This document shows, piece by piece, positions 2,984-60,270 of a DNA stretch of 64,000 nt. Under the pieces are notes generated by a model. The model worked only from the letters and a program-made list of their open reading frames with translations, made no database searches and had not been told where the DNA came from. The stretch spans positions 89,202 through 153,201 of the forward strand of contig CAWFKB010000007.1 of the NCBI GenBank assembly GCA_963816215.1, given 5' to 3'. The translations under genes were made by a program, and so were the position numbers. This stretch comes from an uncultured Chloroflexia bacterium. Lineage in GTDB: Bacteria > Chloroflexota > Limnocylindria > QHBO01. How positions within the stretch are numbered: the stretch's first letter is position 1; every line of letters begins with the position of its first letter.

Positions 2984-5818
2984 ATGGCCTCATCCACGAC
3001 CTCGAGCGGCCGGACCGACGCGCTGATCAGCGTGGCGCAGGCGGCTGCCCTGCTCGGAGTCCATCCCAACACCGTTCGAGCGTGGACCGAGAGTGGCCGC
3101 CTCACCGCCTGGCGGATCAACCCTCGTGGCGACCGGCGTTACCGAAAGGCAGACGTCGAACGTCTCCTGGCCGAGGGAGCCGCCGCGACCGGGAGTGAGC
3201 CCGCAGGCTCGAGCGACGCCGGCCCGGGAAGCCCTCGCATCACCGATTCAGACGTCGAAACGGCGGTCTTGACCAGAATCTCGCAGGGCACCGTGGACGC
3301 CGGCAGCGTGGCCGCGGTGTGCCGCGTGACGGTCGAGTCGCTGCGCACGATCGAGGCCATCGCCCGGGTGGCGGTGTACCTCGTCCGCGACGACCGCCTC
3401 GTGCTCGAAACCCACGCTGGGCACAGCACGCCCCCACCGCCCACCATGGCCTGGCCAGGCGAAACCGACGAATTCGCGCCCGACGGGTCGATTCGCCTGC
3501 CGCTGACCATCGGGCAGGAGCGCATCGGCTTGCTGGTGGCCACCGATGATTCCGATGGCGCATTCCTCAAGTCTCGCCGCCGATTCATGTCCTCCGTGGC
3601 CGGGACCGCGAGCGTGGCCCTGCGCCATGCCCGAGTCATCGCCCGCGCTCGTCGCGAGCTGACCCGCGCTCGTGCTCTGGCCAGCGTCACCCGCGAGCTG
3701 ACCGGCCAGCTGGAGCTGGGCGCGGTCCTGAGCGACATCGCCGACCGGACCCGGGGTCTGTTCGACGCCGACCGGGTGGGCCTCTGGATGCTGACCGAGG
3801 AACGCGAGCATCCCTTCGACCTGGCCGCGGAACGGAGCATCAGCCCGGCGTTCCAGTCCATGGTCGGATCGCTCACCCTCAATTCCCCCTCGCTCGGCAC
3901 CCAGGCCGTCCGCGAACGGCGCACGTTCGTGGCGCGCCATGCCGACACCGACCCATCCGTGGGCGTGCTCCAGGAGGTCTACCGCGCCGAAGGGGTGAAG
4001 ACCGCGTGTCTCGTGCCCCTGGTTTCCCATGACCGGGCGGTGGGCGTCATCGGCCTGTATCACTCCCACGACCGCGAATGGCCCGACGACGAGCTGGCCC
4101 TGGCCCAGGCCTTCGCCAACCAGGCGGCGGTGGCCATCAGCAACGCCCGCCTGTACCGCTCGACCGCGGAGCAGGCCGCCCGCATGCGGTCCATTCACGA
4201 CCTGTCTGCCCGCCTGAACCGCCTGACCGACGTGCAGGCCATCGCCGACGCCATCGTGGCCGAGGCGAGCACGCTCGCCGCCTTCCACGACATCCGGATC
4301 TACACCGTGGACTGGGAGCACGGAACGTGCGAGCCCATCGCCTTCACCGACCGACTCCAGGGGGATGGTGACTTCCGCGACCTGCTGCGGGTCGACATCG
4401 GTGCCGGATCGTTCACTGGCTGGGTCGCCGCCAACGCGCAGCCCATCCTCAGCAACGACGCCCTGAATGACACGCGTGGCCACACGATCGAGGGCACTGA
4501 CGAGATCGAGGAGTCGATGCTGGTCGTGCCCATGGTCTACGAGGGCCGCTCGGTGGGCGTCATCGCCCTGTCCAAGCTGGGTGTCAACCAGTTCTCGACC
4601 GATGACCTGCAGACCATGATGATTTTCGCCGGCTACGCGGCCCAGGCCCTCGTCAATGCGCGCAGCTACCGTCGCCTGGAGGAGCAGTCGAGCCAGCTGG
4701 CTCGGCAGCTGGAATCGCAGCGCAAGCTCCTCGACGTGAGCGCGCACGTCATGGGCACCCTCGAGCAGGAGGACATCCTGGAGACCGTCGCCGACGGCCT
4801 CAAGGCGGTGGTCCACTACGACAACCTGTCGATCTACCGCGCCGACGTCGTCAAGCAGGTCCTCGTCCCGGTCCTGACCCGCGAGCAGCACGCAGAAGAG
4901 GTGATGCGCTACATCATCCCGTTCGGGCGGGGCCTCATGGGATGGGTGGTCCAGAACGCGCAGGCCGTGCTGGCCAACGACGCGCTGGCCGATCCGCGCG
5001 CGCTCCAGATCCCCGGCACCCCGGCGGACCAGGAGGCGCTGATCGTTGTCCCGCTCATCAGCGACGGCCAGGTCACGGGCTCCATGAACGTGAGCCGAAA
5101 TGGTGGCGAGGAGGTCTACTTCAGCGAAACCGATTTCGAGCTGGTCCAGCTGTTCGCCGCGCAGGCAGCCGTGGCCCTCCGCAACGCGGACGAGCACCAC
5201 GCCATGAGCCAGCGGGCGGAGACCGATGCCCTGACCGGGCTGGGCAACCACGGCGCCTTCCAGCGCGACCTGGCCACCTCGATCGACCTGGCCCGCGATG
5301 CCACGCCGGGCAATGGCCAGCTGGGCCTGTTGATGATGGACCTCGACCGCTTCAAGTCCTACAACGACCGATTCGGCCATCCGGCCGGCGACGCGCTGCT
5401 CCACGCCGTGGGCGAGGCGCTGTACGCCGCCACGCGCAGCGACGACCGCGTGTACCGATACGGTGGCGACGAGTTCACGGTCGTGCTGGCGGGCGTGGGG
5501 CTGCCCGAGGCCCAGCGGGTCGCCGAGCGCGCCCGACGCATGGTTGCCGCGGTGTCCATTGAGAGTGGGGCCGCCCCGGTCACGATCACCGTGGGCGTGG
5601 CCCTCTTCCCTGATCACGGGGCCGACAAAGACGCACTGATCGGCGCGGCCGACGCGGCGCTGTATACCGGCAAGCAGGCCGGTGGCGACCGGGTCGTGAT
5701 CCCCGGCGAGAAGCCGAAGACCCGCGCTCCCAAGGCGTCCGCCTCACGCGATCCGCGGCGTGCGGTAGAGCAGCGCCGACGCCGCAGCGACAACCGCACC
5801 AAAACGACCGCGGCCTGA
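2984..5818 (+). CDS. Diguanylate cyclase with N-terminal MerR/excisionase-type HTH and four GAF domains (HTH-GAFx4-GGDEF)
   Basis: 944-aa ORF. N-terminus LLGVHPNTVRAWTESGRL...RRYRKADVERLL (HTH_17-like), four GAF-like blocks, and a C-terminal GGDEF domain with RYGGDEF. Confidence 0.85.
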   Translation: MASSTTSSGRTDALISVAQAAALLGVHPNTVRAWTESGRLTAWRINPRGDRRYRKADVERLLAEGAAATGSEPAGSSDAGPGSPRITDSDVETAVLTRISQGTVDAGSVAAVCRVTVESLRTIEAIARVAVYLVRDDRLVLETHAGHSTPPPPTMAWPGETDEFAPDGSIRLPLTIGQERIGLLVATDDSDGAFLKSRRRFMSSVAGTASVALRHARVIARARRELTRARALASVTRELTGQLELGAVLSDIADRTRGLFDADRVGLWMLTEEREHPFDLAAERSISPAFQSMVGSLTLNSPSLGTQAVRERRTFVARHADTDPSVGVLQEVYRAEGVKTACLVPLVSHDRAVGVIGLYHSHDREWPDDELALAQAFANQAAVAISNARLYRSTAEQAARMRSIHDLSARLNRLTDVQAIADAIVAEASTLAAFHDIRIYTVDWEHGTCEPIAFTDRLQGDGDFRDLLRVDIGAGSFTGWVAANAQPILSNDALNDTRGHTIEGTDEIEESMLVVPMVYEGRSVGVIALSKLGVNQFSTDDLQTMMIFAGYAAQALVNARSYRRLEEQSSQLARQLESQRKLLDVSAHVMGTLEQEDILETVADGLKAVVHYDNLSIYRADVVKQVLVPVLTREQHAEEVMRYIIPFGRGLMGWVVQNAQAVLANDALADPRALQIPGTPADQEALIVVPLISDGQVTGSMNVSRNGGEEVYFSETDFELVQLFAAQAAVALRNADEHHAMSQRAETDALTGLGNHGAFQRDLATSIDLARDATPGNGQLGLLMMDLDRFKSYNDRFGHPAGDALLHAVGEALYAATRSDDRVYRYGGDEFTVVLAGVGLPEAQRVAERARRMVAAVSIESGAAPVTITVGVALFPDHGADKDALIGAADAALYTGKQAGGDRVVIPGEKPKTRAPKASASRDPRRAVEQRRRRSDNRTKTTAA

Positions 5819-6595: not shown

Positions 6596-7600
6596 ATGGA
6601 CGACCACGAGGACCTGACCGGCTCAGCCCGGAAGCGCGACCGGCTCGCCCGCCTGCTGGCGGTGGCCTCGATCCTCTATGCCAAGGGCAGCACCGAGCAG
6701 GGCGTCCCGGTCACCGAGATTGCGAGCCTGACCGGCATGAACGTGCGGACCGTGTACCGCGACCTGCGCGCCCTCGAGGACGAGCTGTCGGTCCCGATCT
6801 TCCAGGCCGGCCGGGGCCGGTATGGGATTGAGCGCAAGTTCTTCCTGCCCCCGCTCCACCTGAGCGTGCCGGAGGCCATCGTCCTGTTCCTCGCCGCCCG
6901 CCTCATCGCGCGCTGGTCCGACGAGGCGGACCAGGTCGTCATCTCGACCTTCACCAAGATCGCGAGCGAGCTGCCGCAGCCCATCGCCCGCCACGTGACC
7001 GCGACCATGCTCGCGGTGGGGGCCCAGGGCGCGAACGAGCGCTTCACGGCCATCTTCAACAGCGTGGCCCGTGGCTGGGCCGAGGGCCGGGTGGTGGACA
7101 TCGTCTACGAGGGCACCAACGGCGAGACGCGCCAGACCCGGGTCCAGCCCTACGCCCTGGAGCCGTATGCGGAGGGGCGGAGCATCTATCTCATCGCTTT
7201 CGATGAGTCTGTCGGCGCCCTGCGCACGTTCAAGGTGGAGCGCATTCGGCAGGCCATCCTGACCCTGGATCCGTACGAGATCCCCGAGACCTTCGACCCC
7301 GACCAGTTCTTCGCCCACTCGTGGGGCATCTGGTCGGCGGAGGGCACGCCGATCGAGGACGTGCACCTGCGGTTCGAGAAGTCGGTCGCGCGGCGTGTGC
7401 GCGAGACGGTGTGGCATCGGTCCCAGGTCCTGACCGATCTGCCCGATGGGCGGATCGAGATGATGGTGCGGGTGGCGGGCATCGTCGAGATCCGACCCTG
7501 GATCCTGTCCTGGGGAGACCAGGTGGAGGTGCTGGAGCCGGCCAGCCTGCGCGAGGCCGTCTCGGCCGCGGTCCGGGGAGCGGCTGCCCGTTACGGCTGA
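6596..7600 (+). CDS. WYL-domain transcriptional regulator (HTH-WYL-WCX, PafC-like architecture)
   Basis: 334 aa. N-terminal DeoR-like HTH (VTEIASLTGMNVRTVYRDLRALE), central WYL-type block (YALEPYAEGRSIYLIAFDESVGALRTFKVERI), and a C-terminal WCX-like segment (WGDQVEVLEPASLREAV). Confidence 0.8.
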   Translation: MDDHEDLTGSARKRDRLARLLAVASILYAKGSTEQGVPVTEIASLTGMNVRTVYRDLRALEDELSVPIFQAGRGRYGIERKFFLPPLHLSVPEAIVLFLAARLIARWSDEADQVVISTFTKIASELPQPIARHVTATMLAVGAQGANERFTAIFNSVARGWAEGRVVDIVYEGTNGETRQTRVQPYALEPYAEGRSIYLIAFDESVGALRTFKVERIRQAILTLDPYEIPETFDPDQFFAHSWGIWSAEGTPIEDVHLRFEKSVARRVRETVWHRSQVLTDLPDGRIEMMVRVAGIVEIRPWILSWGDQVEVLEPASLREAVSAAVRGAAARYG

Positions 7601-8310
7601 GCGGACGCCCGGTCTGGCGTGTCGAGGGGGAGGCGGAGGATGAGGGCCAGGGTCGGCCGGTCGGGGAGCGGCGCTGGGACGAGGGGAGCACGCAACCAGG
7701 CTTCACCGGCCGGTCCGGAGCGGTAGCGGGACGACAGGCGACGCGCGGACAAGCCATCGATCCCGAGCCGCGCCAACGCCTCGGCCACCAGCGTCCCGTC
7801 GCTGCGATATCCGTGGCCAACGGTGATCCGATCGCCGGGGGCCAGGATCGCCGCAAGCCAGTCTCGGCGAACGGAGAACGACCGCCGCATGACCGATTCC
7901 CCGCCGGCCCATAACAGGTCAGCAGCGACGTATGCCGCCCGCCCGGGCCGCGGCTGACGACCTTCCAGGCGGGCACGCAGGAGGTCTGAATCGGGCCGAC
8001 CAGCGTCGTCCAGCACGAGCAGGGTCCCCTCCACGACCACCCCGTCCTCGCTCAGCTGGGCGGGCAGCTCCGCCAGCTCGGGGAACGCCGCTTCCGCATC
8101 GGCCAGCCCCGCCACCTGGAGGCGGACCCGGCCGCGCTCGGCGAAGGCCAACGCCCGCGCGCCGGGCCACCACGGCTCGAACAGGTAGTCGGGATCATCG
8201 AACGGCGCCGGGGCATCCGACGGTTGCATGAGCGCGATCCGGGCGGGGAGACGGGCCGGCCGCGGATCGAGGTCGGGCTCCGCCGGCAGGGGCAGCTGTT
8301 CGGCCGGCAC
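7591..8310 (-). CDS. ATP-dependent DNA ligase-like (LigD ligase-domain homolog) with motif-I lysine substituted. Probably non-catalytic.
   Basis: 239 aa, GTG start 8 nt after the Ku stop. Ligase motifs are recognisable but degenerate: motif I is EPWWPGAR instead of EPKWDGxR; motif IV is YVAADLLWAGGESVMRRSFSVRR; motif V is DGLSARRLSSRYRSGPAGEAWLRA with K->R. No OB domain. Confidence 0.6.
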   Translation of the reverse strand: MPAEQLPLPAEPDLDPRPARLPARIALMQPSDAPAPFDDPDYLFEPWWPGARALAFAERGRVRLQVAGLADAEAAFPELAELPAQLSEDGVVVEGTLLVLDDAGRPDSDLLRARLEGRQPRPGRAAYVAADLLWAGGESVMRRSFSVRRDWLAAILAPGDRITVGHGYRSDGTLVAEALARLGIDGLSARRLSSRYRSGPAGEAWLRAPLVPAPLPDRPTLALILRLPLDTPDRASAQP

Positions 8311-8318
8311 GCCGCGCG

Positions 8319-9224
8319 TCAGGCGGTCTTGCGCCGCCGGGTCTGACGCGTCTCGTCGGCCTCCGCCGGCTTGGCCGCGCGGCTGCGTTTCGCGGGCGCT
8401 GGCTTGCTCTCGGCCTGGGCGTCCCCGGCGGCCGCATCGCGCCGGGCCTCGCGGGCCGCGGCCACGCTCGCCTCGAGGGCGGCCATGAGGTCGCCGATGC
8501 GGGTGGGCTCGGCCTGGGCGATGGGCGTTGGCTCCTGGCCGGCGACCTTGGCCTCGATGACGCCCATCAGCGCCTCGCGGTATCCGTCGCGGTACTCGGA
8601 CGCGTCGAACGTGCCGGTCATGGACGCGATCAGCTGTTCCGCCATCTTCCGTTCCGAGGCCTTGATCTCGATCCCTTCCCGGTCCACCGCGATCTCCTCG
8701 ATCGGGCGCACCTCGTCGGGCCAGTGGAGGGTGGTCAGGAGCATCGACTCCGAATACGGGTTGATGGCGGCCAGCTGCTCGCGGTCCTTCATGACCACCT
8801 TGCAGATGGCGGTCTTGTTGGCATCGGCCAGGACCTCGCGCAGGAGGAAGAAGGCCTTCTTGCCGACCGGGTCGGGCTCGAGGTAGTAGGCGCTCTTCAC
8901 GAACTGCGCGCCATGGGCTTCCTCATCGGCATCGACGAAGGTCTCGATCTCGATGGCCCGGATCGTCTTGAGCGGCACGGCCTCCAGGTCGTCATCGGTC
9001 ACGACCACGTATCGGCCCTTGCTCCACTCATAACCGCGCACCGTTTCCGAGCGCGGCACGACCTCGTCGTGGAACGGGCAGTAGATCTTCATCTGGATCC
9101 GGTTCAGGCAGCTGGCATGCAGCATGTTGAAGCCGATGCCGCTGGACTCGGTCGCCAGGTACAGCTTGACGGGAATGGTCACCAATCCGAATTGGATGGC
9201 GCCCCGCCACATCGCGCGTGCCAT
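8319..9224 (-). CDS. ku: Ku protein (non-homologous end joining)
   Basis: Classic N-terminus MARAMWRGAIQFGLVTIPVKLY, followed by a Ku core and a basic C-terminal tail. I take the ATG at 9224, since the longer ORF upstream adds a junk-like extension. Confidence 0.85.
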   Translation of the reverse strand: MARAMWRGAIQFGLVTIPVKLYLATESSGIGFNMLHASCLNRIQMKIYCPFHDEVVPRSETVRGYEWSKGRYVVVTDDDLEAVPLKTIRAIEIETFVDADEEAHGAQFVKSAYYLEPDPVGKKAFFLLREVLADANKTAICKVVMKDREQLAAINPYSESMLLTTLHWPDEVRPIEEIAVDREGIEIKASERKMAEQLIASMTGTFDASEYRDGYREALMGVIEAKVAGQEPTPIAQAEPTRIGDLMAALEASVAAAREARRDAAAGDAQAESKPAPAKRSRAAKPAEADETRQTRRRKTA

Positions 9225-9276
9225 AGGGTCGGTGAGGATACACCCGGTCTTCCAGCCCCCCAAACCGGCCGTAGGG

Positions 9277-9717
9277 TCAGGACGGCCCGGTGACGACCAC
9301 GAGCGCCTGCTCCTCCGGCAGGCCAGGCCGATTGAGCCGATAGCGGTGCTCGATCCGGACCGAGTGGCTCAGCATCCGCGACACCGGGCAGTAGCGGGTC
9401 GCCGACAGCTCGACCGCGCGGCTGAGGGCCGCCGGTTCCACGGCGCCGGTTACCTGGTGCTCGACCACGATGGTGGTGAAGACGTGCGGCGGGGCCGGCG
9501 CCATCTCGGCCTGCACGGCGATCTCGTAGCGCTCGGGCACCTGGCGCTTCTTGGCCAGGATGCTGGCCACGTCCATGGCCGTGCAGCCCGCGAGGCCGAC
9601 CAGGACCGCTTCCCGGGGTGAGGCGCCAACCCGTTGGGCAGCGTCGGCCGAGTCGAGGACGATCGTGAAGCCCGAGCCGGTCGTGGCGTCGGTGCGCAGG
9701 GAGGCCGCCGGATCCAC
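9277..9717 (-). CDS. OsmC/Ohr-family peroxiredoxin-like protein
   Basis: 146 aa with the OsmC signature GASPREAVLVGLAGCTAMDVASIL. Confidence 0.8.
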   Translation of the reverse strand: MDPAASLRTDATTGSGFTIVLDSADAAQRVGASPREAVLVGLAGCTAMDVASILAKKRQVPERYEIAVQAEMAPAPPHVFTTIVVEHQVTGAVEPAALSRAVELSATRYCPVSRMLSHSVRIEHRYRLNRPGLPEEQALVVVTGPS

Positions 9718-9743
9718 GACCCGGGCCTGGACGCGGAGCCCGC

Positions 9744-10349
9744 TTACGGGTTGTCCTCCAGGGGCGTGGGAATCCAGCCGCGGACTTCCTCCTCGGGGAG
9801 GATGTCGGCCAGGAGGTTGTCGTGCTCGCGCTCGTCGGCGATCAGGAAGACCTGGGCCAGGGCCCGGTGCACGGCCACGACGTCGGCGGTCCCGTCCACG
9901 GCGGGGTAGGGCGCGCAGCTGACGGCGACATCGGTCAGGGGCACGAAGCGGTCGGACACGTTCATCAGGCCATCCATGGCCTGGCTGGCCTCGGGGACGT
10001 GGAACATGCCGGTCAGCCAGAACGGCGCGATCCCGACCTGGATCTTCACGGGGCGCTTCTGGACCTGGAACTCGTTGTCATCGTCCGGGGCGCCGCTGCT
10101 GATGCCGAACAGGATCTCGCTGATCGCGACCCGCACCTGCTGGCCGCCGCGGGCGGCGCCCTGATCGGCGTACTCCGTCACCGTCGCCTGGTCCACCGCG
10201 AGGTGGTCGGAGCCGGACAGGTTGAGGATGTCGGTGGCCTTGCGGAACCGGGTGGACATCGTGCCCGACACGCGGAAGCCGACCGTGTAGAGCTCGACCT
10301 GGACGGGGAGGGTCGGAGGTCCCAGCGATCCGGCGTCCCAGCTGCTCAC
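9744..10349 (-). CDS. Hypothetical protein (no family recognised)
   Basis: 201-aa ORF with GTG start and protein-like composition, packed tightly between the methyltransferase and OsmC genes on the same strand. Confidence 0.45.
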   Translation of the reverse strand: MSSWDAGSLGPPTLPVQVELYTVGFRVSGTMSTRFRKATDILNLSGSDHLAVDQATVTEYADQGAARGGQQVRVAISEILFGISSGAPDDDNEFQVQKRPVKIQVGIAPFWLTGMFHVPEASQAMDGLMNVSDRFVPLTDVAVSCAPYPAVDGTADVVAVHRALAQVFLIADEREHDNLLADILPEEEVRGWIPTPLEDNP

Positions 10350-10358
10350 ATACCGATG

Positions 10359-11129
10359 CTACCGCTTGCGCGCCTTCCAGACCTCCTCACTCGGCCAGTT
10401 TCGGGCCCACTCGAGGGTCGAGATGTTCGTGTACCGGGTCTCGGCGCCTTCGGGGGCGCGAATCTCGACCAGGTCGGTGACCTCGAATCCGCTGCTCACC
10501 AGCAACCGGATCATGTCGCCGTGGGACAGGTGGAACTCGACGCTGTCCTCATCGGTCCACTCGAATCGGTGCATCCCGAACTGGGGACGGATGAGCCTGT
10601 CGGTGGCAGGCCCGTCCACCTCGAGGTCGGGCACGCTCAGCATCAGCAGGACGCTGTTGCCCAGGAAGATGAGCTCGCCGCCCGGTCGCAGGAGGCGCGC
10701 CGCCTCGGGGATCCACTGGTACGGGTCGGCCCAGATGGCCGCGCCGTACTCGGAGATCGCCAGGTCGAAGCTCGCCTCGGGAAGCGGCACCTGTTCGGCG
10801 AATCCCAGGATGAGCGGGAACTCCAGCCCGTGCTCGGCCTGGAGGCGTCGCGCGGTCTCGAGCTGGCGGGGCGAGTTGTCGAGGCCCACCACCCGGGCGC
10901 CCCGTCGAGCGAGCCAGGCGGAGACGTAGCCCGTCCCGCAGCCCAGCTCGATGGCGTCCTTCCCCGCCAGGTCGTCCGGCAGGAGATGCAGCTCGGACTC
11001 GGGCACGCCCCAGATCCCCCACCCCGGCTCGTCCGACGCCCAGTTCCGCTCACCGGCCGCCACGTACTCCTCGGCGGCGGTATCCCACCAGGCGCGGTTG
11101 CGTCGGACGTGCTCGGGCAACTCTGCCAT
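10359..11129 (-). CDS. Class I SAM-dependent methyltransferase
   Basis: Motif I ELGCGTGYVSAWLARRGARVVGLD. ATG at 11129. The long N-terminal extension in the ORF track is Arg-rich junk. Confidence 0.75.
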   Translation of the reverse strand: MAELPEHVRRNRAWWDTAAEEYVAAGERNWASDEPGWGIWGVPESELHLLPDDLAGKDAIELGCGTGYVSAWLARRGARVVGLDNSPRQLETARRLQAEHGLEFPLILGFAEQVPLPEASFDLAISEYGAAIWADPYQWIPEAARLLRPGGELIFLGNSVLLMLSVPDLEVDGPATDRLIRPQFGMHRFEWTDEDSVEFHLSHGDMIRLLVSSGFEVTDLVEIRAPEGAETRYTNISTLEWARNWPSEEVWKARKR

Positions 11130-11187: not shown

Positions 11188-13536
11188 ATGGAGCCGTCCA
11201 CCGCCAACGTCCTGGGCGCGGACGCACCGACGTTCAGCGCCGAGCAGGCGCAGGACATCGTGGCGGCGGTGTGGGGTCGGCGCGGAACGGCGACGCCCCT
11301 CGTCTCCGAGCGGGACCAGAACTTCCGCCTGACCGATGAACACGGCACGTCGTGGGTCCTGAAGATCGCGAACGCGGTCGAGGACCCGGGCGTGGTGGAC
11401 ATGGAGGTCGAGGCCGTCCGCCACGTGGCACGGATGGACCCCGATCTCCCGGTCGCGGTCCCCATCCCGACCGATGACGGGCCGTCGGTTGTCTCGCTCC
11501 CCGGCCCACGTGGCGAGGTGCACCTGGTCCGGCTCCTGCCCTTCATGCCGGGGGCGCACGTCGATGCGGCCGACCTGGATCTCGACGCGATCACGGAGAT
11601 CGGACGGACAACGGCGCGCCTGGGGCGTGCCCTGCGCGGCTTCTTCCACCCGGCCGCGGGGCGCGTGATCCTGTGGGACATCAAGCATCTGGACGAGCTG
11701 CGTCCCCACCTGGGCGCCGTGGCCGACCCCGCGCGACGGGCGATGGTTGATCGGGCCCTGGAACGGTTCGACGTGCGGGTGGCGCCGGCCCTGCCCGGGC
11801 TGCGGGCGCAGGTCATCCACAACGACGCGACCCTGGACAACCTGCTGCTCGACGGCGGCCGCGTGTCAGGGATCGTGGACTTCGGGGACATGGCCCACAC
11901 CGCGCTGATCCTGGACCTGACCGCCATGCTGCAGTCCGTCCTGCGCGGTCGGGCCGACGTGTGGGAGGCCGCCGAGGCGGCCATCCAAGGCTACGGTTCG
12001 GTCATTCCCCTCGAAGCCGAGGAGGGCGACCTGCTGGCCGATCTGCTCGCCGCGCGGATGGTGCAGACCGTGCTCATCTCCGTGTGGCGCACCGCCCAGT
12101 ACCCCAACAACGAGTACATCCGAGGCTGGCTGGAACCGGCCTACGAGCTGCTCGATGCAATGGAGGCCTTCGGCTATGACGAGGCCGTTCGACGCCTGGC
12201 CGCCGCTGCGGGAAGCGCGGGCGCAGGAGCGCGCGATGCGCGCCGCACCATCATCCCGACCGAGGAGCTGCGGGAGCGCCGCCAACGGGTGCTCGGTTCC
12301 GCGCTGTCACCCCTGACCTACGACCGGCCACTGCATCTCGTCCGCGGTGACGGGGTGTGGCTGTACGACGCCGAGGACCGCGCCTACGTGGACGCCTACA
12401 ACAATGTGCCGGTCGTGGGCCACGCCCACCCGGTCGTGGTGGAGGCCATCGCCCGCCAGGCGGCAGACCTGAACACGAACACCCGCTACCTCCACGAGTC
12501 GGTCGTGCTCCTCGCCGAGCGCCTGACGGCCAGCATGCCCGAGGAGCTCGACACCGTCATGTTCGTGAACTCCGGGAGCGAGGCCAACGACCTGGCCTGG
12601 CGGCTGGCGACGGTGGCCACCGGCGGCACCGGCGGCATCTGCACCACCTGGTCGTACCACGGCCTGACCGCGGCCATCGCGGACCTGTCCTCCTCGGAGT
12701 GGCCGCGCGGGGAGCGGCCCGCATCGGTCGAAACGATCCCGGCTCCAGATCCGCTGCGCGGACCCCACCACGACCAGCTGGACGTGGACGTCGCCAGCGC
12801 CGCGGAGCTGGGCGCGGCCGCCGCGCGGCTGGTAGAGCAGGGCGTCACTCCGGCGGCCGTGTTCGTGGACGGGACGTTCACTGCCGATGGAATCTTCCCC
12901 ACCACGCCTGCGTACCTGGCCGAGCTCCGCCGCCAGACCACCGCCGCGAACGTGATCTACGTGGCGGACGAGGTCCAGGCCGGGCACGGTCGGACCGGGG
13001 ACCTGTGGAGCTTCGGGGCGTCGGGGGTCACGCCCGACCTGGTGACCCTGGGCAAGCCGATGGGCAACGGCCACCCGGTGGCGGCGGTCGTCGCCCGCTC
13101 GGAGATCGTGGATCGGTTCGCGGCGGAGCACGAGTACTTCAGCACCTTCGGCGGCAACCCCGTCGCGTGCGCCGCGGCGCTGGCGGTGCTGGACGTGATC
13201 GACGACGAGGGGTTGCTTCAGAACGCCGCGACCGTCGGTGGTCTCCTGCGGGACGCCGTGGAGGCCATGGCCGCCGACCACCCGGCCATCGGTGACGTCC
13301 GGGGCCGCGGCCTGATGGTCGGGGTGGACCTCATGGTCGACCGCGGGACGCGCGAGCCGGCCTCGGACCTGGCGCACCGGGTCATGAACGAGATGCGCGA
13401 GCGCGGAGTCCTGATCAGCACCACCGGGCGTTTGGGCAACGTCCTGAAGATCCGTCCCCCGCTGGTCCTGACCGCGTCCCAGGCCGAGCTGATCATCACC
13501 GCCCTGGACGACTCGCTGCGCGCCGCCGGCGCCTAG
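11188..13536 (+). CDS. Bifunctional fusion: APH/choline-kinase-fold phosphotransferase (N-terminus) + class-III PLP aminotransferase-like domain (C-terminus). Candidate aminoalcohol/hydroxylysine kinase + phospho-lyase.
   Basis: N-terminal half has the kinase catalytic loop [29 protein letters not shown]-terminal half has class-III aminotransferase motifs [16 protein letters not shown] and the PLP-lysine block [10 protein letters not shown]. Starts at ATG 11188. Confidence 0.85.
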
Positions 13537-13559: not shown

Positions 13560-15284
13560 CTACTCCGGGGGCAACGACCCGCGGGTCGCGATCCGCGCGT
13601 CCCGCCCGCCCTGCCCGGTGGCCAGCAGGATCCGACCGCTGGCCTGCGCCTCGAACAACGTTTCGACGGACGCCAGGTCGTCGATGTCGGCCACCGTCTT
13701 GTCCTCGCGGACGCGGACGATCCGCGGGAAGCGCAGCGCAAAGCCGCTCCCGTGGCGCGTGCTGCGCATGATCCGGTCGAACGCGATCTCGACCACGACC
13801 TCGGGCACCACGCTGCGGTAGCGGCCGAAGTCGCGGAGCGTGGTCTTCTGGAAATGCTCGGTGAAGGCGGCGATCTCCGCATCGGTCAGGCCGGTGTAGG
13901 CCTTGCCCACCACGGACAGGCCCGATCCATCGGTCTCGCGCACGGCAAAGGTGTAATCGGACAGCACGCCCCGGCGCTTGCCGTGGCCCCACTCGACGCC
14001 CACCACCACGCAGTCGAGGGTGGCGAGCGCCTTCTTGAGCTTCAGCCAGCCGAGCCCGCGACGACCCGGCTGATAGACCGATGCCGGGTCCTTGACCATG
14101 AGCCCCTCGTTGCGCCGCTCGCGAGCGGCGTCGAACAGAGCGTCCACCTCGTCCGTGCTCGTGGCCCGATCCAGGCGGGCGTACAGGAGCCGGCCATCGG
14201 TCTTGCCCGGCAGATCGAGCGCTTCCAGGGCCGCCCGGCGCTCGCGGAGCGGCGTCTCCAGCAGGTCGCGCCCGTCGACGTGTAGCACGTCGAACGCGAC
14301 CAGGACCACCGGTACGCGCTCCAGGAGTGCGGCGTCGGGATTGACCCGGCCAAGACGCCGCTGGAGGGCGGCGAAGTCCAGGACGGCGCCCGCCTTGAAC
14401 GGGATCAGCTCCCCGTCCAGGACCAGGTCATGGCCGAGGGAGGCAACCGAGCTGACGACCTCCGGGAAGGAGACGGTGATCTCCTTCAGGTCGCGGCTGA
14501 AGAGGCGCGCGGTGCCGCTGGCGAGATGGAGCTGAGCCCGGATGCCGTCGTACTTGTCCTCGATCCAGGCCTCGTCACCCACCCGGCGCACGACCTCCGC
14601 CGCGTCCCCGACCGGGGTCGCGAGCATGGGTCGGATGGGTCGTCCCAGGTGCAGGCCGGCGGTGTCGAGCTGGCCGCGCCGGGCCAGGGTGGCTGCCTCA
14701 CCGGGTTCGCCCAGGAGCATCAGCGCGCGTCGAACCGATGCCTGCGGCGCGTCGAAGGCGGCGGCAATGGCCTCCTCCAACAGGCCCTCACGCAGACCAA
14801 TGCGCGTTTCGCGTGCCGCGATCCGCGCGACGTATCGGGCTTCGTCAGGCGTGGCCCGCCGGAACAGCTCGGTCATGACCGCCACCCGGGCGTCGGTGGT
14901 CGGGGCATCGGCCATGGCCCGGTAGCCGTCGGCCACGTCGCCCACGGTCAGTACCGGGCCCGCGGGACGCTGGGCGGCAAGGAGGTCCGCCGCCGCATCC
15001 CCGAAGTCGGAGTGGCGGAGCCACGCGGCGGACATCGCTTCTTCTGCGGCCCCGCTGGCTGCGGCCAGGGCGGCGGCCTGCTGGACCCATCCCAGGCCGA
15101 GACGGTCCGCGGCGCCGGGGAGCGGCTTGCCCGACAGGAACGTTGCGGCGCGCGGCAGATCCGCGGCCGGCAGGTCATGCAGGTAGGCGGCCAGGATGTC
15201 GCGCTTGGCGAGCTTGGACCGGGTCGCCGCCACCGCGTCCGCGGTGGCGGCAAAGGCACTGAACGGGGAGCTTCGGGATGCCAT
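13560..15284 (-). CDS. lig: ATP-dependent DNA ligase (LigB/Lig1-like, with N-terminal DNA-binding domain)
   Basis: 574 aa. Motif I EDKYDGIRAQ, motif III LDGELI, motif V GLMVKDPASVY, motif VI WLKLK. Confidence 0.85.
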   Translation of the reverse strand: MASRSSPFSAFAATADAVAATRSKLAKRDILAAYLHDLPAADLPRAATFLSGKPLPGAADRLGLGWVQQAAALAAASGAAEEAMSAAWLRHSDFGDAAADLLAAQRPAGPVLTVGDVADGYRAMADAPTTDARVAVMTELFRRATPDEARYVARIAARETRIGLREGLLEEAIAAAFDAPQASVRRALMLLGEPGEAATLARRGQLDTAGLHLGRPIRPMLATPVGDAAEVVRRVGDEAWIEDKYDGIRAQLHLASGTARLFSRDLKEITVSFPEVVSSVASLGHDLVLDGELIPFKAGAVLDFAALQRRLGRVNPDAALLERVPVVLVAFDVLHVDGRDLLETPLRERRAALEALDLPGKTDGRLLYARLDRATSTDEVDALFDAARERRNEGLMVKDPASVYQPGRRGLGWLKLKKALATLDCVVVGVEWGHGKRRGVLSDYTFAVRETDGSGLSVVGKAYTGLTDAEIAAFTEHFQKTTLRDFGRYRSVVPEVVVEIAFDRIMRSTRHGSGFALRFPRIVRVREDKTVADIDDLASVETLFEAQASGRILLATGQGGRDARIATRGSLPPE

Positions 15285-16329: not shown

Positions 16330-16406
16330 GCCCCCATCGTCTAGAGGCCTAGGACGCCACCCTTTCAAGGTGGAGATCACCGGTTCGAATCCGGTTGGGG
16401 GCGCCA
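16330..16406 (+). tRNA. tRNA-Glu (anticodon TTC)
   Basis: Hand-folded cloverleaf: acceptor GCCCCCA/TGGGGGC, anticodon stem CCACC/GGTGG with loop CTTTCAA, T-loop TTCGAAT, 3' GCCA encoded. Confidence 0.85.
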
Positions 16407-50857: not shown

Positions 50858-52767
50858 GAGCTGAGCTCCTTGCGCCGGGCCAGGTAGGCGGGGATGGTGT
50901 TCATCGGCGGACGAATGGCGTCACCCACCTCGCGCACGTCCAGGGTGAATCGGCCGTTCTCCTGGCGGATCTGCTTCATGCGCTCCCCCATATCGGTCAG
51001 CAGCTCCAGGCGCTGGCGTTCCTCGAGCTTGGTGATGGCCGCCTTGAGGATGACGAACGCCATCCGGGACAGGTCAGGCAGGGACTGGTTGCGGTGGATG
51101 CGGCGCTCGAGGTCCACCTGGCCGATCCCGGACAGGCCCACGCGGTCGGCAATGTCGATGAGAAGACCGATTTCGACAGCGTAGCCGGTGAAGAACGGCA
51201 CCGATTCGAGCAGCTCGCGCCGTCCGGCGTATTCGCCCGACAGGGGCTGGATGACCCCGGACAGCTCGGGGAAGAACAGGTTGATCAGGGGCCGCGCCGT
51301 CAGCTCGGTGACCCGCCCACCCTGGTCCGGCTGGAGCTGCCCGCCAGTGACGATGGGACGCTGGTAGAAGCCCTTCACGTACTGGATCCGCGGCTCGCGG
51401 AGCAGTGGCCCCAGCAGGCCGTACACGAACCGGGGCTGGATGTTGCGGATGTCGGTGTCGACCCACACCACCAGGTCGCCGCGCAGCTCGTACAGGCTCT
51501 TCCAGAGCGCCTCGCCCTTCCCCACGTATGCGCCCAGCTCGGGGAGGATCTCGTCGTGCTGGCGGACGGCGGCGCCGAGCTCGCGGGCAATCTCGACCGT
51601 GCGGTCGGTGGAGGCCGAGTCGACGACCAGGAGCTCATCAACCAGCGGGACTCGGTCCATGAGCGCCTCTCGAATGCGGCGTATGGTCAGGCCAATCGTC
51701 TTCTCCTCGTTGAGGGTCGGGAGGCCCACGCTGACGGTCAGGGCCTGCCGTTCCTTGAGATCGACCAGCCGATGGAGGTCGCGGAACTCGCTGGCGTGGA
51801 ACGTGTTCTCCGCGAACCAGCGGTCAACAACAGTCGGCAGGGTGTTGCTCTCCTCGAACGCGGCATCGGCCGCCGGGAGGCTCCCGGCCTCGGCCCGCAG
51901 GTGCTCGAAGGTCCCCGCGGTCACGGGCTGTCGCGACTTCACCACCATCACCGTGGGGCGGGCGCGGGATGCCACCGTCTCCGCCAGGCGCCCGAACAGG
52001 CGACGCCCGGTGCCGCTCCCCGTGGGCTCCGCCGCGGCCCCGACCACCACCAGGTCGTGGTGGGCCGACTCGCGCAGGATGGCGCCGCGCACGGTCGGTG
52101 CCTCGATCACGAGCGGCTTGACCGTCACGCCCCGGGCATGCCGTTTGACGAGCCCGCTCAACGCCGCCTGGCTGCGGGCCAGCGCGTCGGGACCGCCCCC
52201 CGGCGGGACGACGTGAAGGGCCACCAGCTGGGCACCAAATCCGCGGGCCAGGTCCGCCGCGAGGGTCAGGGCCAGCTCGGCGTTGGGGCCGCCACGGACC
52301 GGGACCAGGATGGAGCTCACGCTCCCGAGGCCGCGCTGCTTGACCACGGCGATGTCACATGGCGCGTCGCGGACCACGTCGTCGATCGTGGTCGAGAACA
52401 CCGCTCTCCCGCGTTGTCCCTGTCGCGGAGGTCCGCCCCAGCCGAAGATGACGAGATCGGCCCCGATCTCGGCCACCGCCTCCACGATCCCGTCCGATGC
52501 CTGGCGGCCGATCCGAACCGCGGTCCGGACCTCGACCGACGCGTCATCGCGGAAGTTCGGCACCCGCTGCAGGAGGCGCCGCGCCTCACGAGCGCGGTTG
52601 GCGCCCTCGGCCAGGGACACGCCCTCGGGCACCTCGACGATGCCCAGGGCCGTGATCTCGGTCGCCCGCCGATGGGCCAGGTGCGAGCCGATCCGGACCA
52701 GGTCGCGCGCCGTCCGCGGGTTGGCCAGGGGCATGAGGATCCGATACGGCCCCCGGCGGCGCGCCAT
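50854..52767 (-). CDS. gpgS: Fusion of tandem universal stress protein (UspA) domains with glucosyl-3-phosphoglycerate synthase (GpgS)
   Basis: N-terminal about 300 aa are two Usp-like domains. C-terminal about 320 aa match GpgS closely: LPTLNEE, LVVDSASTDRT, GKGEALWKSL, GGRVTELTARPL, QPLSGEYA, GYAVEIGLLID, HRN. The ATG at 52767 overlaps the upstream stop (TGATG). Confidence 0.7.
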   Translation of the reverse strand: MARRRGPYRILMPLANPRTARDLVRIGSHLAHRRATEITALGIVEVPEGVSLAEGANRAREARRLLQRVPNFRDDASVEVRTAVRIGRQASDGIVEAVAEIGADLVIFGWGGPPRQGQRGRAVFSTTIDDVVRDAPCDIAVVKQRGLGSVSSILVPVRGGPNAELALTLAADLARGFGAQLVALHVVPPGGGPDALARSQAALSGLVKRHARGVTVKPLVIEAPTVRGAILRESAHHDLVVVGAAAEPTGSGTGRRLFGRLAETVASRARPTVMVVKSRQPVTAGTFEHLRAEAGSLPAADAAFEESNTLPTVVDRWFAENTFHASEFRDLHRLVDLKERQALTVSVGLPTLNEEKTIGLTIRRIREALMDRVPLVDELLVVDSASTDRTVEIARELGAAVRQHDEILPELGAYVGKGEALWKSLYELRGDLVVWVDTDIRNIQPRFVYGLLGPLLREPRIQYVKGFYQRPIVTGGQLQPDQGGRVTELTARPLINLFFPELSGVIQPLSGEYAGRRELLESVPFFTGYAVEIGLLIDIADRVGLSGIGQVDLERRIHRNQSLPDLSRMAFVILKAAITKLEERQRLELLTDMGERMKQIRQENGRFTLDVREVGDAIRPPMNTIPAYLARRKELSS

Positions 52768-54065
52768 CAGGACGGTTCCCTTTGCGCGCCAGCGGCCTGC
52801 GCCTGCCAGGCGCGCACGAGCCACGGCTTGAGGTCCTCGAACTCGCGCGCCTGGGCTTCGACCAGCCGCTCGGCCTGGTCGTCGGTCAGGTCACGGACCT
52901 CGTTGATGAATCCCGCCGTGCGCCCGAAGTACAGCCCCGTCAGCCCGGCCAGCAGGGCCTCGCGGTCCATCCCGGAGCGCTGGAAGGCCAGCAGCGCGTC
53001 GAACAGGCAGCGGATCCAGAGCTCCGAGGGAAAGGCGAAGGTGGACGGATCGTCCACGGACAGGGCCCGGACTCGCTCGAGCTGCTCCCCGGCCAGCACC
53101 CGCTTCCAGACCGTTCCCTCGGCCAGCCGCGCGTTGTCGAAGCCATGAACGAGCGCGGCCTGGTCCACCGTGATCGGCTCCGGGGCGATGACCCGCTCGA
53201 AACCGTACTCGGGCACCGGTTCGGAGCCCTTGATCGGCAGCCACTCGGCGGCCTGCTCTCCGGCCAGCCGGAAGAGGGTCCCGACCACCTGGCGGAACAT
53301 CGGTCCCAGGTCGCCGGCGGGGTCCTTGGGGTCGTGGACCTTGGCCCCCAGCCGGGTCTGGCACACCGCGAACCCGCCGGCCAGGGCGTGGTGGGTCATC
53401 CAGATGTCGATCCCGAACCGCGCCGTGCCCTCGTCCCAGTCGGGCAGCTCGAGCAGCGCCTTGACCAGGTCGCGGCTGATGGCGAACTCCCCGCCGATCG
53501 GCTGCCGCAGGCGACGCCCGTACAGGGTCCGGGTCAGCGGGTAGGCGATGTGGTTGGTGATCGTGCCGTCGTACTTGTGGCGGGCGTAGAGCGGCGCGAC
53601 GTAGTCGTAGCCGCCCTTCAGGATCGGTCCGGCCAGGAGCTCGATCCACTCGGGCACGATGCTGCGCAGGTCGGAGTCGACGAGGACGAGCGCCTCGACC
53701 TTCAGCTCGTGCGCGACCTCCAGCAGGGCGCGCACCGCCGATCCCTTCCCGCTGGGTCCCCGGTAGGTGACCGCGATCCGCCGCAGCCGGTGCGGGGGCC
53801 GGATGAGGATCATCTGCTCCAGGTAGTCGGGGCTCTCGGTCGTGACCGCCACCCGGGGCGTGTCGTCGGCGGAGCCGCCGTCCGCGTTCACGAGCACCGG
53901 TTTGAGGTCGGTGAAGTACTGGACCATGCCCGCCGTCGCGGCCCGCACCACGTACCCGATCGTGTCCGCATTCCCGAAGGACGGGATGCCCACCATGAGA
54001 TCCGCCTGGCCCACCCGGCGCACCGCGTTCCATCCGCGTGCGTCCAGAGCGGAGGCGACCTTCAC
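52767..54065 (-). CDS. GT-A-fold glycosyltransferase (GpgS/MpgS-like), specificity unknown
   Basis: GIPSFGNADTIGYVV and VNADGGSADDTP glycosyltransferase motifs. The GTG overlaps the upstream stop (GTGA). Confidence 0.6.
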   Translation of the reverse strand: MKVASALDARGWNAVRRVGQADLMVGIPSFGNADTIGYVVRAATAGMVQYFTDLKPVLVNADGGSADDTPRVAVTTESPDYLEQMILIRPPHRLRRIAVTYRGPSGKGSAVRALLEVAHELKVEALVLVDSDLRSIVPEWIELLAGPILKGGYDYVAPLYARHKYDGTITNHIAYPLTRTLYGRRLRQPIGGEFAISRDLVKALLELPDWDEGTARFGIDIWMTHHALAGGFAVCQTRLGAKVHDPKDPAGDLGPMFRQVVGTLFRLAGEQAAEWLPIKGSEPVPEYGFERVIAPEPITVDQAALVHGFDNARLAEGTVWKRVLAGEQLERVRALSVDDPSTFAFPSELWIRCLFDALLAFQRSGMDREALLAGLTGLYFGRTAGFINEVRDLTDDQAERLVEAQAREFEDLKPWLVRAWQAQAAGAQREPS

Positions 54066-54757
54066 CGGTTGATCACGCGCTTCTTGCGTCCCTTCCAGAA
54101 CAGGTTGGTGGGCCCGGGCGCCCGGTCGGGCTGGATGGCGATCACGATCCAGTCCTCGGTCGCGGTCCCCGGCTGGTAGCGCGAGTTGGCGTGCTTGGCC
54201 ACCGCCTGGCGGAAGCCGTTCTCGTGCCAGGCGTGGAACCACGACCCGAGCGGCATCTTGACCGATGGCGTGACTCGCACGCGGACACTCTCCGAGACCA
54301 GGCCCGACAGGAGCCGGCGCCGCTCCTGGTACGGCACGTCCCCCAGGAATTCGCCGTCGATCTCGACCACGTCCACCACCACGAACGCGCGCCGCTTCTC
54401 GAGCTCCGCGGGATCAGGCCCCTCTTCAGGCAGGTCGCCGGCCTCGTCGGCCAACGCCTCCGACCATCGCTCGGCCGCCGACCCATGGCCCAGGAAGGGC
54501 TGGGCGCTCCAGATCCCGTCGAGCACCGCCTGATCGGCGTCAACCGACACGGCGAGGACCTCGGCCAGCTCGTGGTAGAAGTCGTCGACCGGCACCCCCG
54601 ACCCATCGGTCAGGCGGACGGTCCCGTCGCTGATGGAAGCCACCAGGCGATCCCCGGTCCAGTACGGCTCGAACGACCAGTGCGGGCTGTTGATGCTCAC
54701 TCTCGACTCGGTCGCGAGCTGGGGAAGGATGGGCCCGACGCCGCGCTCGGTGGTCAT
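54062..54757 (-). CDS. ATP-dependent DNA ligase-like protein (second paralog) with motif-I Lys and motif-III Glu substituted. Probably non-catalytic.
   Basis: ILPQLAT...HWSFEPYWTGDR (motif I, K->Y); VLDGIWS (motif III, E->I); FVVVDVVEIDGEFLGDVPYQERRRLL (motif IV); NGFRQAVAKHANSRYQPGTATEDWIVIA (motif V/VI). ATG overlaps the helicase stop (ATGA). Confidence 0.55.
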   Translation of the reverse strand: MTTERGVGPILPQLATESRVSINSPHWSFEPYWTGDRLVASISDGTVRLTDGSGVPVDDFYHELAEVLAVSVDADQAVLDGIWSAQPFLGHGSAAERWSEALADEAGDLPEEGPDPAELEKRRAFVVVDVVEIDGEFLGDVPYQERRRLLSGLVSESVRVRVTPSVKMPLGSWFHAWHENGFRQAVAKHANSRYQPGTATEDWIVIAIQPDRAPGPTNLFWKGRKKRVINR

Positions 54758-59174: not shown

Positions 59175-60270
59175 CCCGGCCCGTCGCGACCTCGCGCATG
59201 GCGTCGGGGTCGCCGGCACCCGGGCCTACCCCATCGGTCTCGCCGGAGCCGGAGCGGCCGAGGTTGCGCGGCGGTCGCGGCTTGCGCTTGGCGTACCCCG
59301 TGGGATGGGACAGCTTCCAGGCCCATGCGTCGGCCAGCATCTGCTCCAGCGACGATTCGCGCGGGCTCCAGCCCAGGTCTCGACGGGCGCGGCGGGAGGA
59401 GGCCACCAGGCGCGGCGGGTCGCCCACCCGTCGACGGACGACGCGGGCCGGGATCGCTCGACCGGTGACCTTGCGGGCGGCCTCGATCACCTCGCGGACG
59501 GAGAATCCGGCCGCGGAACCGAGGTTGTAGACCTCGAACGAGGGCTCCGCCTCGCCGGTGGCCTCGAGGGCCAGCAGGTGGGCGGTGGCCAGGTCGCGGA
59601 CGTGGATGAAGTCCCGAATGCAGGTCCCGTCGGGGGTGTTGTAGTCCTGGCCGAAGATCCGGACGTCGGGATGCTCACCGGCGGCGACCTTGAGGATGAG
59701 CGGGATGATGTGCGTCTCCGGGTCGTGGTCCTCCCCGTTGCGCTCGGTGGCGCCGGCCACGTTGAAGTAGCGCAGGCTGATCGCCCGGAAGCCGTGGCAC
59801 GCCGCGTACCAGCGCATGGCGCCCTCGAACGCGAGCTTCGTCTCGCCGTACGGGTTGATCGGCTCGGTCCGGTCCGCCTCGGCGATGGGGACCCGCTTGG
59901 GCTCTCCGTACACCGCGGCGGTGGACGAGAACACGATCCGGGGCACCCGACGCTCGCGGAGTGCCTCGAGCAGCTTCACGCCGTTGCTGACGTTCTCGCG
60001 GTAGTACAGCTCCGGGTGCTCCATGGACTCGCTGACCAGGGAGCGAGCGGCGCAGTGGAGGACGGCCTGGATACGGTGCTCGCGAAGGACGCGCTCGACC
60101 CGGTTCTGATCGCTCAGGCTGCCCACCACCAGTCGCGCGCCGCGGACGACCGCGTCGCGGTGGCCGGTCTTCAGGTTGTCGTAGACGGTGACGTCATGGC
60201 CGGCGTCGATGAAGGTCTCGACGCTCGTCGAGCCCACGTATCCGGCGCCACCGACAACCAGGATCCGCAC
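59164..60270 (-). CDS. galE: UDP-glucose 4-epimerase
   Basis: VVGGAGYVGS Rossmann motif, catalytic YGETK, full-length NAD-dependent epimerase. Confidence 0.85.
   Translation of the reverse strand: MRILVVGGAGYVGSTSVETFIDAGHDVTVYDNLKTGHRDAVVRGARLVVGSLSDQNRVERVLREHRIQAVLHCAARSLVSESMEHPELYYRENVSNGVKLLEALRERRVPRIVFSSTAAVYGEPKRVPIAEADRTEPINPYGETKLAFEGAMRWYAACHGFRAISLRYFNVAGATERNGEDHDPETHIIPLILKVAAGEHPDVRIFGQDYNTPDGTCIRDFIHVRDLATAHLLALEATGEAEPSFEVYNLGSAAGFSVREVIEAARKVTGRAIPARVVRRRVGDPPRLVASSRRARRDLGWSPRESSLEQMLADAWAWKLSHPTGYAKRKPRPPRNLGRSGSGETDGVGPGAGDPDAMREVATGRVSP

Follow-up and report, generated by a model that had tools for sequence, protein, structure and literature searches.

In a stretch of 64,000 nucleotides (nt) from an uncultured Chloroflexia bacterium (GenBank contig CAWFKB010000007.1, positions 89,202 to 153,201; hereafter the window), a gene for Ku is followed on the minus strand by one for a ligase-like protein of 239 residues, which we call psiLig (7591-8310). 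[quoted passage not shown] The reading that we favour here, with moderate confidence, is a Ku module devoid of LigD: Ku and psiLig would form a two-gene cistron in which psiLig serves as a non-catalytic adaptor. Bacterial NHEJ itself is known; what is new is a ligase pseudoenzyme coupled to Ku and equipped with candidate docking peptides.

The ligase-like protein and its pairing with Ku

In a profile comparison, psiLig matches the ligase domain of Mycobacterium tuberculosis LigD (6nhx/1vs0, E ~3e-20) over its nucleotidyltransferase (NTase) part only, which makes homology to a LigD-type NTase domain clear. The best-scoring NCBIfam model is the M. tuberculosis-type LigD, NF007210, with a score of 92.2 against a curated cutoff of 989; PF01068 (24.2 against 26.2 bits) and TIGR02779 (74.8 against 227.75) stay below their cutoffs as well. 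The TIGR02779 match is partial: it spans model positions 8-182 out of 302, or the first 60%, and the OB half is missing. PF04679, which describes the OB domain, finds no match in psiLig. As the protein ends about 30 residues past motif V, it has no OB domain, and in the window the DNA downstream of its stop codon codes for a WYL regulator.

The residues that would contact the nucleotide are lost along with the OB domain. Motif I (residues 44-50; 8161-8181, minus strand) reads FEPWWPG, compared with FEGKWDG in M. tuberculosis LigD, so that an initial annotation of this DNA was right to notice the missing motif-I lysine. Tryptophan takes the place of the adenylated K481 and proline that of the aspartate in the profile alignment, and FEPWWPG is kept without exception in an alignment of 25 psiLig sequences. 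In motif III, DGE has become (D/E)GT; in motif IIIa, which reads YVA(A/S)DLL, the aromatic residue is replaced by alanine or serine. The lysine of motif IV (EGxxxK) is changed to arginine in DGLSAR, and those of motif V (WxKxK) to arginine and proline in AWLRAP. Nucleotide-contacting side chains are thus replaced at every motif tested, and psiLig, judged by its sequence, would truly be non-catalytic. Since it fails every defining test of a DNA ligase, its annotation as LigD is inappropriate.

For comparison we retrieved 80 species loci, 78 of which were used for counts of start spacing and of terminal peptides. The window psiLig contains no lysine at all, and 61 of the 78 orthologues share this trait. 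Lysine makes up only 1.9% of residues genome-wide, and the probability of finding none in 239 residues is about 0.01, which renders the absence less striking. We considered a special adaptation behind it and downgraded the idea, given this low lysine content and another local protein that is likewise lysine-free.

The psiLig family is large, with more than 800 homologues of 203-239 residues. A word-indexed search returned 885 relatives, the best 120 of which are 67-100% identical to psiLig and 201-239 residues long, and a scan with the pattern [FL]FEPWW[PG]G through one genome per GTDB species found a relative encoded in 398 species genomes. Pairwise ratios of non-synonymous to synonymous substitution rates (dN/dS) against 14 orthologues are 0.04-0.21 for psiLig, a range indistinguishable from those of Ku (0.06-0.38) and of an intact ligase encoded nearby (0.06-0.32). 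Purifying selection is therefore shown to maintain psiLig.

Its partner gene encodes a regular Ku protein of 301 residues (8319-9224, minus strand) that matches TIGR02772 with 269.8 bits (cutoff 150) and PF02735 with 143.3 bits, over the full length. Aligned orthologues place its start at the ATG at 9224 (MARAMWRG, found in all of them) and not at the TTG at 9263. The C-terminal tail is basic and ends in RRRKTA. This extreme C-terminus, RRRK(T/V)A (8319-8340 in the window), is near-identical even in the divergent loci L090-L092, which hints at a terminal interaction peptide.

In all loci with upstream DNA among the 80, Ku lies directly upstream of psiLig on the same strand. About 70 of the 78 loci have the GTG start of psiLig 4-16 nt past the stop codon of Ku; the commonest spacing, 8 nt, is that of the window, where the start is also GTG. 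The pair recurs in three non-syntenic loci, with psiLig sequences 43-49% identical. Its neighbours there include MoxR/DUF58 genes, carbamoyl-phosphate synthase, a GDSL lipase and a TetR regulator, and no gene other than Ku and psiLig is common to the window and these three loci. Conservation of psiLig and its adjacency to Ku, both inside and outside the syntenic block, mark Ku-psiLig as the core unit. In locus L008 (about 7026-8690), the closest relative, with a psiLig 96% identical, the Ku frame continues into psiLig as an apparent fusion past a frameshift in the C-terminal tail of Ku; the cause is probably an indel error of long-read assembly and not a real fusion.

The unit comes with a promoter-like element of its own. 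Its family consensus is TTGc-N6-ccGGTGTAnnaT, and the window copy, CTGGAAGACCGGGTGTATCCT (9235-9255, minus strand), sits in the 52-nt gap between the genes for an OsmC-like protein and Ku. The -10-like hexamer TATCCT ends 10 nt ahead of the Ku ATG, which implies a leaderless mRNA or one with a very short leader. The core SGGTGTANNNT matches once in the 64-kb window, and a relaxed form of the pattern gives 52 matches in the 80 loci, all of them upstream of Ku, where about 2 are expected by chance. With such a Ku-specific element, Ku-psiLig appears to be transcribed as a unit by itself rather than as the last part of a five-gene operon.

Clade-specific conserved blocks stand 20-60 nt further upstream of the element in L012, L019-L026 and most of L029-L087. 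They include AATGGCG(G/T)GATGGTCCTAG, GCGTCCTTTCGTCGAGATCGG, repeated GGTAC(C) units and the palindrome CCAGTAGTACTGG, and they may be operator sites. Their equivalent is not evident in the window, where the spacer between OsmC and Ku is shorter.

The C-terminus of M. tuberculosis Ku touches D522, K579 and L580 in the ligase domain of LigD (bioRxiv 10.64898/2025.12.12.693941). The profile alignment matches D522 with the invariant E88 of psiLig and L580 with the invariant W151. Because psiLig descends from the very domain that Ku contacts in LigD, we infer that it binds Ku too, and we consider it quite probable that Ku has a non-catalytic partner in psiLig. As the initial annotation remarked, the arrangement does not resemble the usual ku-ligD pair: the partner of Ku has neither the catalytic lysine nor OB, polymerase (POL) and phosphoesterase (PE) domains.

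Terminal peptides and a candidate mechanism

Both ends of psiLig carry short peptides specific to the family. The N-terminus follows the consensus V-x-x-[ED]-Q-L-x-L-[PS]-[VI]-P between variable flanks: glutamine is present in 73 of the 78 species, L6 in all 78 and L8 in 77. Codons of the two leucines (CTC, CTT, CTG) are interchangeable, so that selection acts on the peptide itself. The commonest hexapeptides are QLPLPV (20 species), QLDLPI (9) and QLPLSI (8), and QLSLPL occurs in one; in the window, the hexapeptide is QLPLPA (residues 5-10; 8281-8298, minus strand). The pattern is rare, with 3 matches among all six-frame open reading frames (ORFs) of at least 150 codons in the window.

Hda of E. 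coli binds the sliding clamp through an N-terminal hexapeptide QL[SP]LPL, which corresponds to QFKLPL in Caulobacter HdaA (PMC3836487), and QLSLPL serves as a tight-binding reference peptide for the clamp (PMC12309361). The psiLig peptide likewise lies within the first 10-20 residues and is conserved where its flanks vary, as expected of a beta-clamp motif. Hda differs in being an AAA+ regulator of DnaA, unrelated to psiLig in fold and pathway. Pattern, position and conservation being the grounds for it, we treat a clamp-binding role of the N-terminal peptide as a serious candidate that still falls short of even chances.

The C-terminal peptide, RPxLALxxRLPL, is present in the window as RPTLALILRLPL (residues 218-229; 7624-7659, minus strand). 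An identical 12-mer is found in 44 of the 78 species and close variants in the others; this peptide matched no known motif.

We propose the following mechanism. psiLig would derive from the NTase half of a LigD-type ligase domain, having lost the OB domain and the adenylation residues. The dead NTase fold would keep the surface by which LigD binds the Ku tail, and perhaps the one that binds DNA ends. A second partner, most plausibly the beta sliding clamp, would be engaged by the N-terminal [ED]QLxL[PS][VI]P peptide, and a third by the C-terminal one. Sealing must fall to another enzyme if the Ku-adjacent psiLig is dead; it could be the syntenic three-domain ATP-dependent ligase and/or clamp-bound enzymes, and the tandem Sm-like DUF6812 protein encoded beside that ligase may be its accessory. 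Binding to Ku and to the clamp, as well as the identity of the sealing ligase, are what we infer here. In a wider and more tentative version, which we regard as possible and not as probable, Limnocylindria would join ends without LigD: psiLig, recruited by Ku, would tether Ku-bound ends to the clamp by its N-terminal peptide and to a further partner by its C-terminal one, and clamp-bound polymerases and a separate Lig1-type ligase would then fill and seal the break.

Several observations weigh against this proposal. LigD K579, the third residue contacted by Ku, aligns with a variable position of psiLig. An AlphaFold2 model computed from the 25-sequence alignment reached a pLDDT of 41.6, too poor for a fold search, so that the fold assignment comes from the profile alignment to LigD in the PDB alone. 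The protein is mildly acidic (isoelectric point ~5.1), which argues against strong DNA binding by itself. As for the clamp, the window hexapeptide ends in alanine and not in a large hydrophobic residue, arginine stands in for glutamine in 5 of the 78 species, and the most divergent lineages have weaker versions of the N-terminal motif (RLSLGL, RLTLAE). The intact ligase and Ku are linked by synteny inside a single class, and this linkage is gone from the three divergent loci. Finally, these genomes could encode a real LigD at another place, as the scan for it covered the window and loci L001-L007.

Some of these deviations, namely the final alanine of the window copy and the arginine for glutamine in some lineages, would fit a variant in which psiLig binds Ku and its N-terminal peptide docks onto Ku, the three-domain ligase or the DUF6812 protein instead of the clamp. 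Short peptides rich in leucine and proline are common interaction modules, and neither the 80 loci nor the three non-syntenic ones link a clamp gene to the module. On the other hand, the position near the N-terminus, the Q-L-x-L-P-hydrophobic spacing and the tolerant third position mirror Hda and HdaA. The motif is also retained (QLSLDI, QLDLAL) in loci that have no ligase and no DUF6812 gene, so neither protein is likely to be its obligatory partner. We judge this variant unlikely, if the best of the alternatives.

Still less probable is that psiLig is an NTase-fold enzyme of new chemistry, acting with another ligand or a non-lysine nucleophile on Ku-bound ends or on Ku itself. Many of the polar residues that line the would-be active-site region are invariant (E45, R52, D101, R105, D107, D131, R148/R149, D171, R190, R207), and lysine-less cousins with the motif FEPRWGG are encoded beside PPK2 and other polyphosphate genes and not beside Ku, which hints at a nucleotide- or phosphate-linked role of the wider family. 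However, all five nucleotide-contacting motif positions are replaced together in psiLig, the two tryptophans of motif I are more typical of a filled, ligand-free pocket, and most orthologues, the same 61 of 78, lack any lysine. The searchable literature yielded no precedent for such an enzyme.

Neighbouring genes and their control

All close homologues with a named source come from metagenome-assembled genomes of Candidatus Limnocylindria/Chloroflexota and none from Actinobacteria; the initial annotation, which had assigned this DNA (about 70% G+C) to Actinobacteria, was mistaken on this point. Its six ORFs are all confirmed by the ORF list, Pfam and NCBIfam, and so is the 10-bp overlap between the 3' ends of the WYL regulator gene and of psiLig. 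The tight packing that it described on the minus strand holds for the gaps of 9, 26 and 8 nt and fails between OsmC and Ku, where the corrected Ku start leaves 52 nt. Beyond Ku, the remaining minus-strand genes encode the OsmC/YhfA-like protein (9277-9717), the DUF6812 protein of 201 residues (9744-10349) and a class I S-adenosylmethionine-dependent methyltransferase (10359-11129; Methyltransf_11/25 by Pfam and NCBIfam).

The single five-gene operon that was first proposed is not supported: Ku-psiLig is preceded by a separate promoter-like element, and neither the methyltransferase nor the OsmC gene is constant. When the five-gene order was checked in the relatives, gene content proved not to be fixed. 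The usual order there is ligase, sometimes methyltransferase, DUF6812, an opposite-strand gene of about 250 codons, OsmC, Ku and psiLig. The methyltransferase gene is facultative, present between the ligase and DUF6812 in about a third of the 80 loci. OsmC is absent from several of the closest relatives (L013-L016, L027 and L033); in the members of this subclade that lack it, the DUF6812 stop codon runs into the Ku promoter-like element.

The intact ligase (13560-15284, minus strand) matches PF04675 (84 bits), PF01068 (152.8 bits) and PF04679 (47.4 bits), all above cutoff. It is LigB/Lig1-like, consisting of an N-terminal DNA-binding domain, an NTase domain with KYDG and an OB domain; it stays below the equivalog cutoffs NF002868 and TIGR04120, and we assign it no subtype. 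The initial annotation saw it lying on its own, 4 kb away from Ku. Most relatives encode it immediately upstream of DUF6812 and on the same strand (with a gap of 20-31 nt in three of four annotated examples), contiguous with the cluster. The 4-kb separation is a subclade-specific insertion of the methyltransferase gene and of a gene fusing an APH-type kinase to a class-III aminotransferase (11188-13536, plus strand; Pfam). The latter lies between ligase and cluster only in L008, L011, L013-L016, L027 and L033; in other loci it is on the far side of the ligase. The layout of the window, with this fusion gene between ligase and methyltransferase and no opposite-strand gene, is restricted to that subclade. 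As the linkage of ligase, DUF6812 and OsmC is gone in the divergent loci, it counts as weaker evidence than the pairing of Ku with psiLig.

The 201-residue protein, previously said to be of unknown family, just reaches the Pfam cutoff of DUF6812 (27.6 against 27.1 bits), and its predicted fold is similar to Sm-like ones; it is predicted to form two tandem Sm/LSm-like beta-barrels. The OsmC-like protein belongs to its family by score (PF02566, 64.2 against 27.5 bits) and by both family cysteines (GC...YCP), and scores below the YhfA-like equivalog NF008009 (74 against 138). Between DUF6812 and OsmC, most relatives have the opposite-strand gene, of 185-253 codons, which is absent from the window. 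Copies are found in L001 (7734-8291), L004 (7578-8339) and L005 (7242-7991), all on the minus strand; two of the three have no Pfam match and one a weak LPXTG-anchor match, and the L004 copy is lysine-free.

The regulator gene next to psiLig (6596-7600, plus strand) encodes an HTH-WYL-WCX architecture: WYL (49.5 bits) and WCX (67.7 bits) are above cutoff, and HTH_11, HTH_23 and HTH_PafC all below. It closes a plus-strand series made of a GAF-GGDEF gene, an ORF of 237 codons and WYL. The head of the series (2984-5818, plus strand) encodes 944 residues with a MerR-type HTH, a triple GAF and a GGDEF domain, and is syntenic in nearly all related loci. A CYTH-domain gene and one for a large, O-antigen-ligase-like membrane protein (Wzy_C) follow on the strand of WYL in most relatives and separate it from psiLig; the order WYL, CYTH, Wzy_C is seen in L004 (12855-14539), L005 (12919-14576) and L006 (12849-14524). 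This suggests a WYL-CYTH-Wzy_C unit downstream of the GAF-GGDEF protein, the two distal genes of which were lost in the lineage of the window.

The initial annotation had instead taken the WYL protein for a PafBC-like regulator of a DNA-damage operon composed of the methyltransferase, DUF6812, OsmC, Ku and pseudo-ligase genes. The damage-responsive regulators PafBC and DriD do have the HTH-WYL-WCX architecture; the genes adjoin and are tightly spaced in the window, and throughout the syntenic Limnocylindria block only a few genes lie between WYL and Ku-psiLig. We nevertheless give this model little credence. WYL is convergent with the cluster and not upstream of it, as the distal gene of the GAF-GGDEF unit; CYTH and Wzy_C intervene in most relatives, and WYL is missing from the three non-syntenic Ku-psiLig loci. 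Within the proposed operon, the Ku promoter-like element is not common to the other genes, and two of them, methyltransferase and OsmC, are facultative. The HTH_PafC model gives 19.2 against a cutoff of 32. No LexA box (GAAC-N4-GTTC) was found near the cluster, nor does this motif exceed chance; the mycobacterial RecA-NDp motif has a sole match in the window, at 60235, with one mismatch and at chance level, and none near the cluster. WYL is adjacent to the Ku module and most likely not part of it; a regulatory link to Ku, though conceivable, found no support here.

That psiLig might be a functionless, decaying remnant of a frameshifted or truncated full-length ligD, in line with its sub-threshold PF01068 score, its match to just the first 60% of TIGR02779 and the label 'LigD' given to relatives by JGI pipelines, is effectively refuted by a length and a set of substitutions that are alike across the 398 species, by its low dN/dS, by invariant family-specific residues and terminal motifs that are gains and not losses, by the occupation of the downstream space by WYL or Wzy_C, and by a tblastn search with seven full-length LigD sequences that matched ligase segments alone in the window and L001-L007. 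No POL, PE or OB remnants were found by this search in any frame near psiLig, which removes the objection that the initial annotation had itself raised, of psiLig being a piece of a frameshifted ligD.

We also considered a defence system and rejected it, as PADLOC gave generic matches alone (WYL regulator models, and a methyltransferase resembling mad2).

Known systems and related proteins

As in canonical Ku-LigD pairs (M. tuberculosis, Pseudomonas, Bacillus subtilis), a genuine bacterial Ku precedes, in one transcription unit, a gene that descends from the ligase domain of LigD, and the window Ku shares their usual basic C-terminal tail. Unlike canonical LigD, psiLig has no catalytic lysine, OB, polymerase or phosphoesterase domain, and it carries two family-specific terminal peptides. 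A separate ATP-dependent ligase in variable gene surroundings is also a feature of NHEJ with stand-alone ligases (the LigC/LigB back-up, the multi-gene sets of Streptomyces); the difference here is that the LIG match next to Ku is dead and a competent ligase of Lig1/LigB type stands a few genes off. The regulator at 6596-7600 has the architecture of PafBC, DriD, BrxR and CapW, and differs from them in being neither upstream of nor divergent from the Ku cluster, with no RecA-NDp motif there.

XRCC4, XLF and PAXX are eukaryotic non-catalytic NHEJ scaffolds at DNA ends. As non-enzymatic partners of Ku or ligase they are analogous in concept to what psiLig may be; they share no homology with it, and psiLig would be a ligase-derived pseudoenzyme. 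The NHEJ categories of Sharda et al. 2020 count any LIG-domain match as a ligase and take no account of inactive domains (PMC7719229), and a metagenomic ligase survey makes no mention of inactive ligase domains (PMC10140301). Our literature searches returned no lysine-less or pseudo-ligase linked to Ku, and nothing on DUF6812.

Throughout a class of abundant bacteria of soil and freshwater, in at least 398 species genomes, a dead, OB-less ligase domain is kept in translational coupling to Ku, and automated 'LigD' annotations are wrong in these genomes. Bacteria may use non-enzymatic end-joining scaffolds, as eukaryotes do with XRCC4 and XLF, and the clamp-binding-like peptide provides a directly testable hypothesis that joins Ku to the replication clamp. 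If true, psiLig would be the first non-catalytic accessory factor of bacterial NHEJ, and Ku would for the first time be connected to the clamp. Although the organisms are uncultured, the proteins are small and can be tested in vitro.

An exhaustive profile search finds about 35 clusters at 50% identity that carry FEPWWPG together with the C-terminal motif, and many other LigD-like proteins in which the lysine of motif I is missing (among them FEPRWGG, FEVLWDG and FEIDWDG). A pair of more distant cousins of the RWGG/WWGG type, P0327 (L088, 8001-8744) and P0336 (L093, 3383-4174; FEPWWGG), share the RPxLALxxRLPL peptide and are not beside Ku. P0327, with FEPRWGG, is encoded directly downstream of PPK2, and a PPK1 gene lies a few kb downstream of both P0327 and P0336; in L088 it is followed by a CYTH-CHAD gene.

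Another NTase-only relative of ligases, distinct from psiLig and 231 residues long, is encoded in the window as well (54062-54757, minus strand). Its motif I reads FEPYWTG, the motif IV lysine is kept, and the protein is lysine-poor with a basic C-terminus, FWKGRKKR. Its ATG overlaps by 4 nt the stop of the upstream DEAD-box helicase gene, whose ORF ends at 54754; positions 52767-54242 hold a glycosyltransferase-like ORF. The family and its pairing with the helicase are conserved in Limnocylindria (L094). In this lineage, dead ligase NTase domains seem to be paired repeatedly with nucleic-acid enzymes.

Apart from a tRNA gene at 16330-16403 (plus strand; RF00005, 64 bits), an Rfam scan detected nothing in the window. 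The tRNA gene comes just past a molybdopterin oxidoreductase gene, itself divergent from that of the intact ligase.

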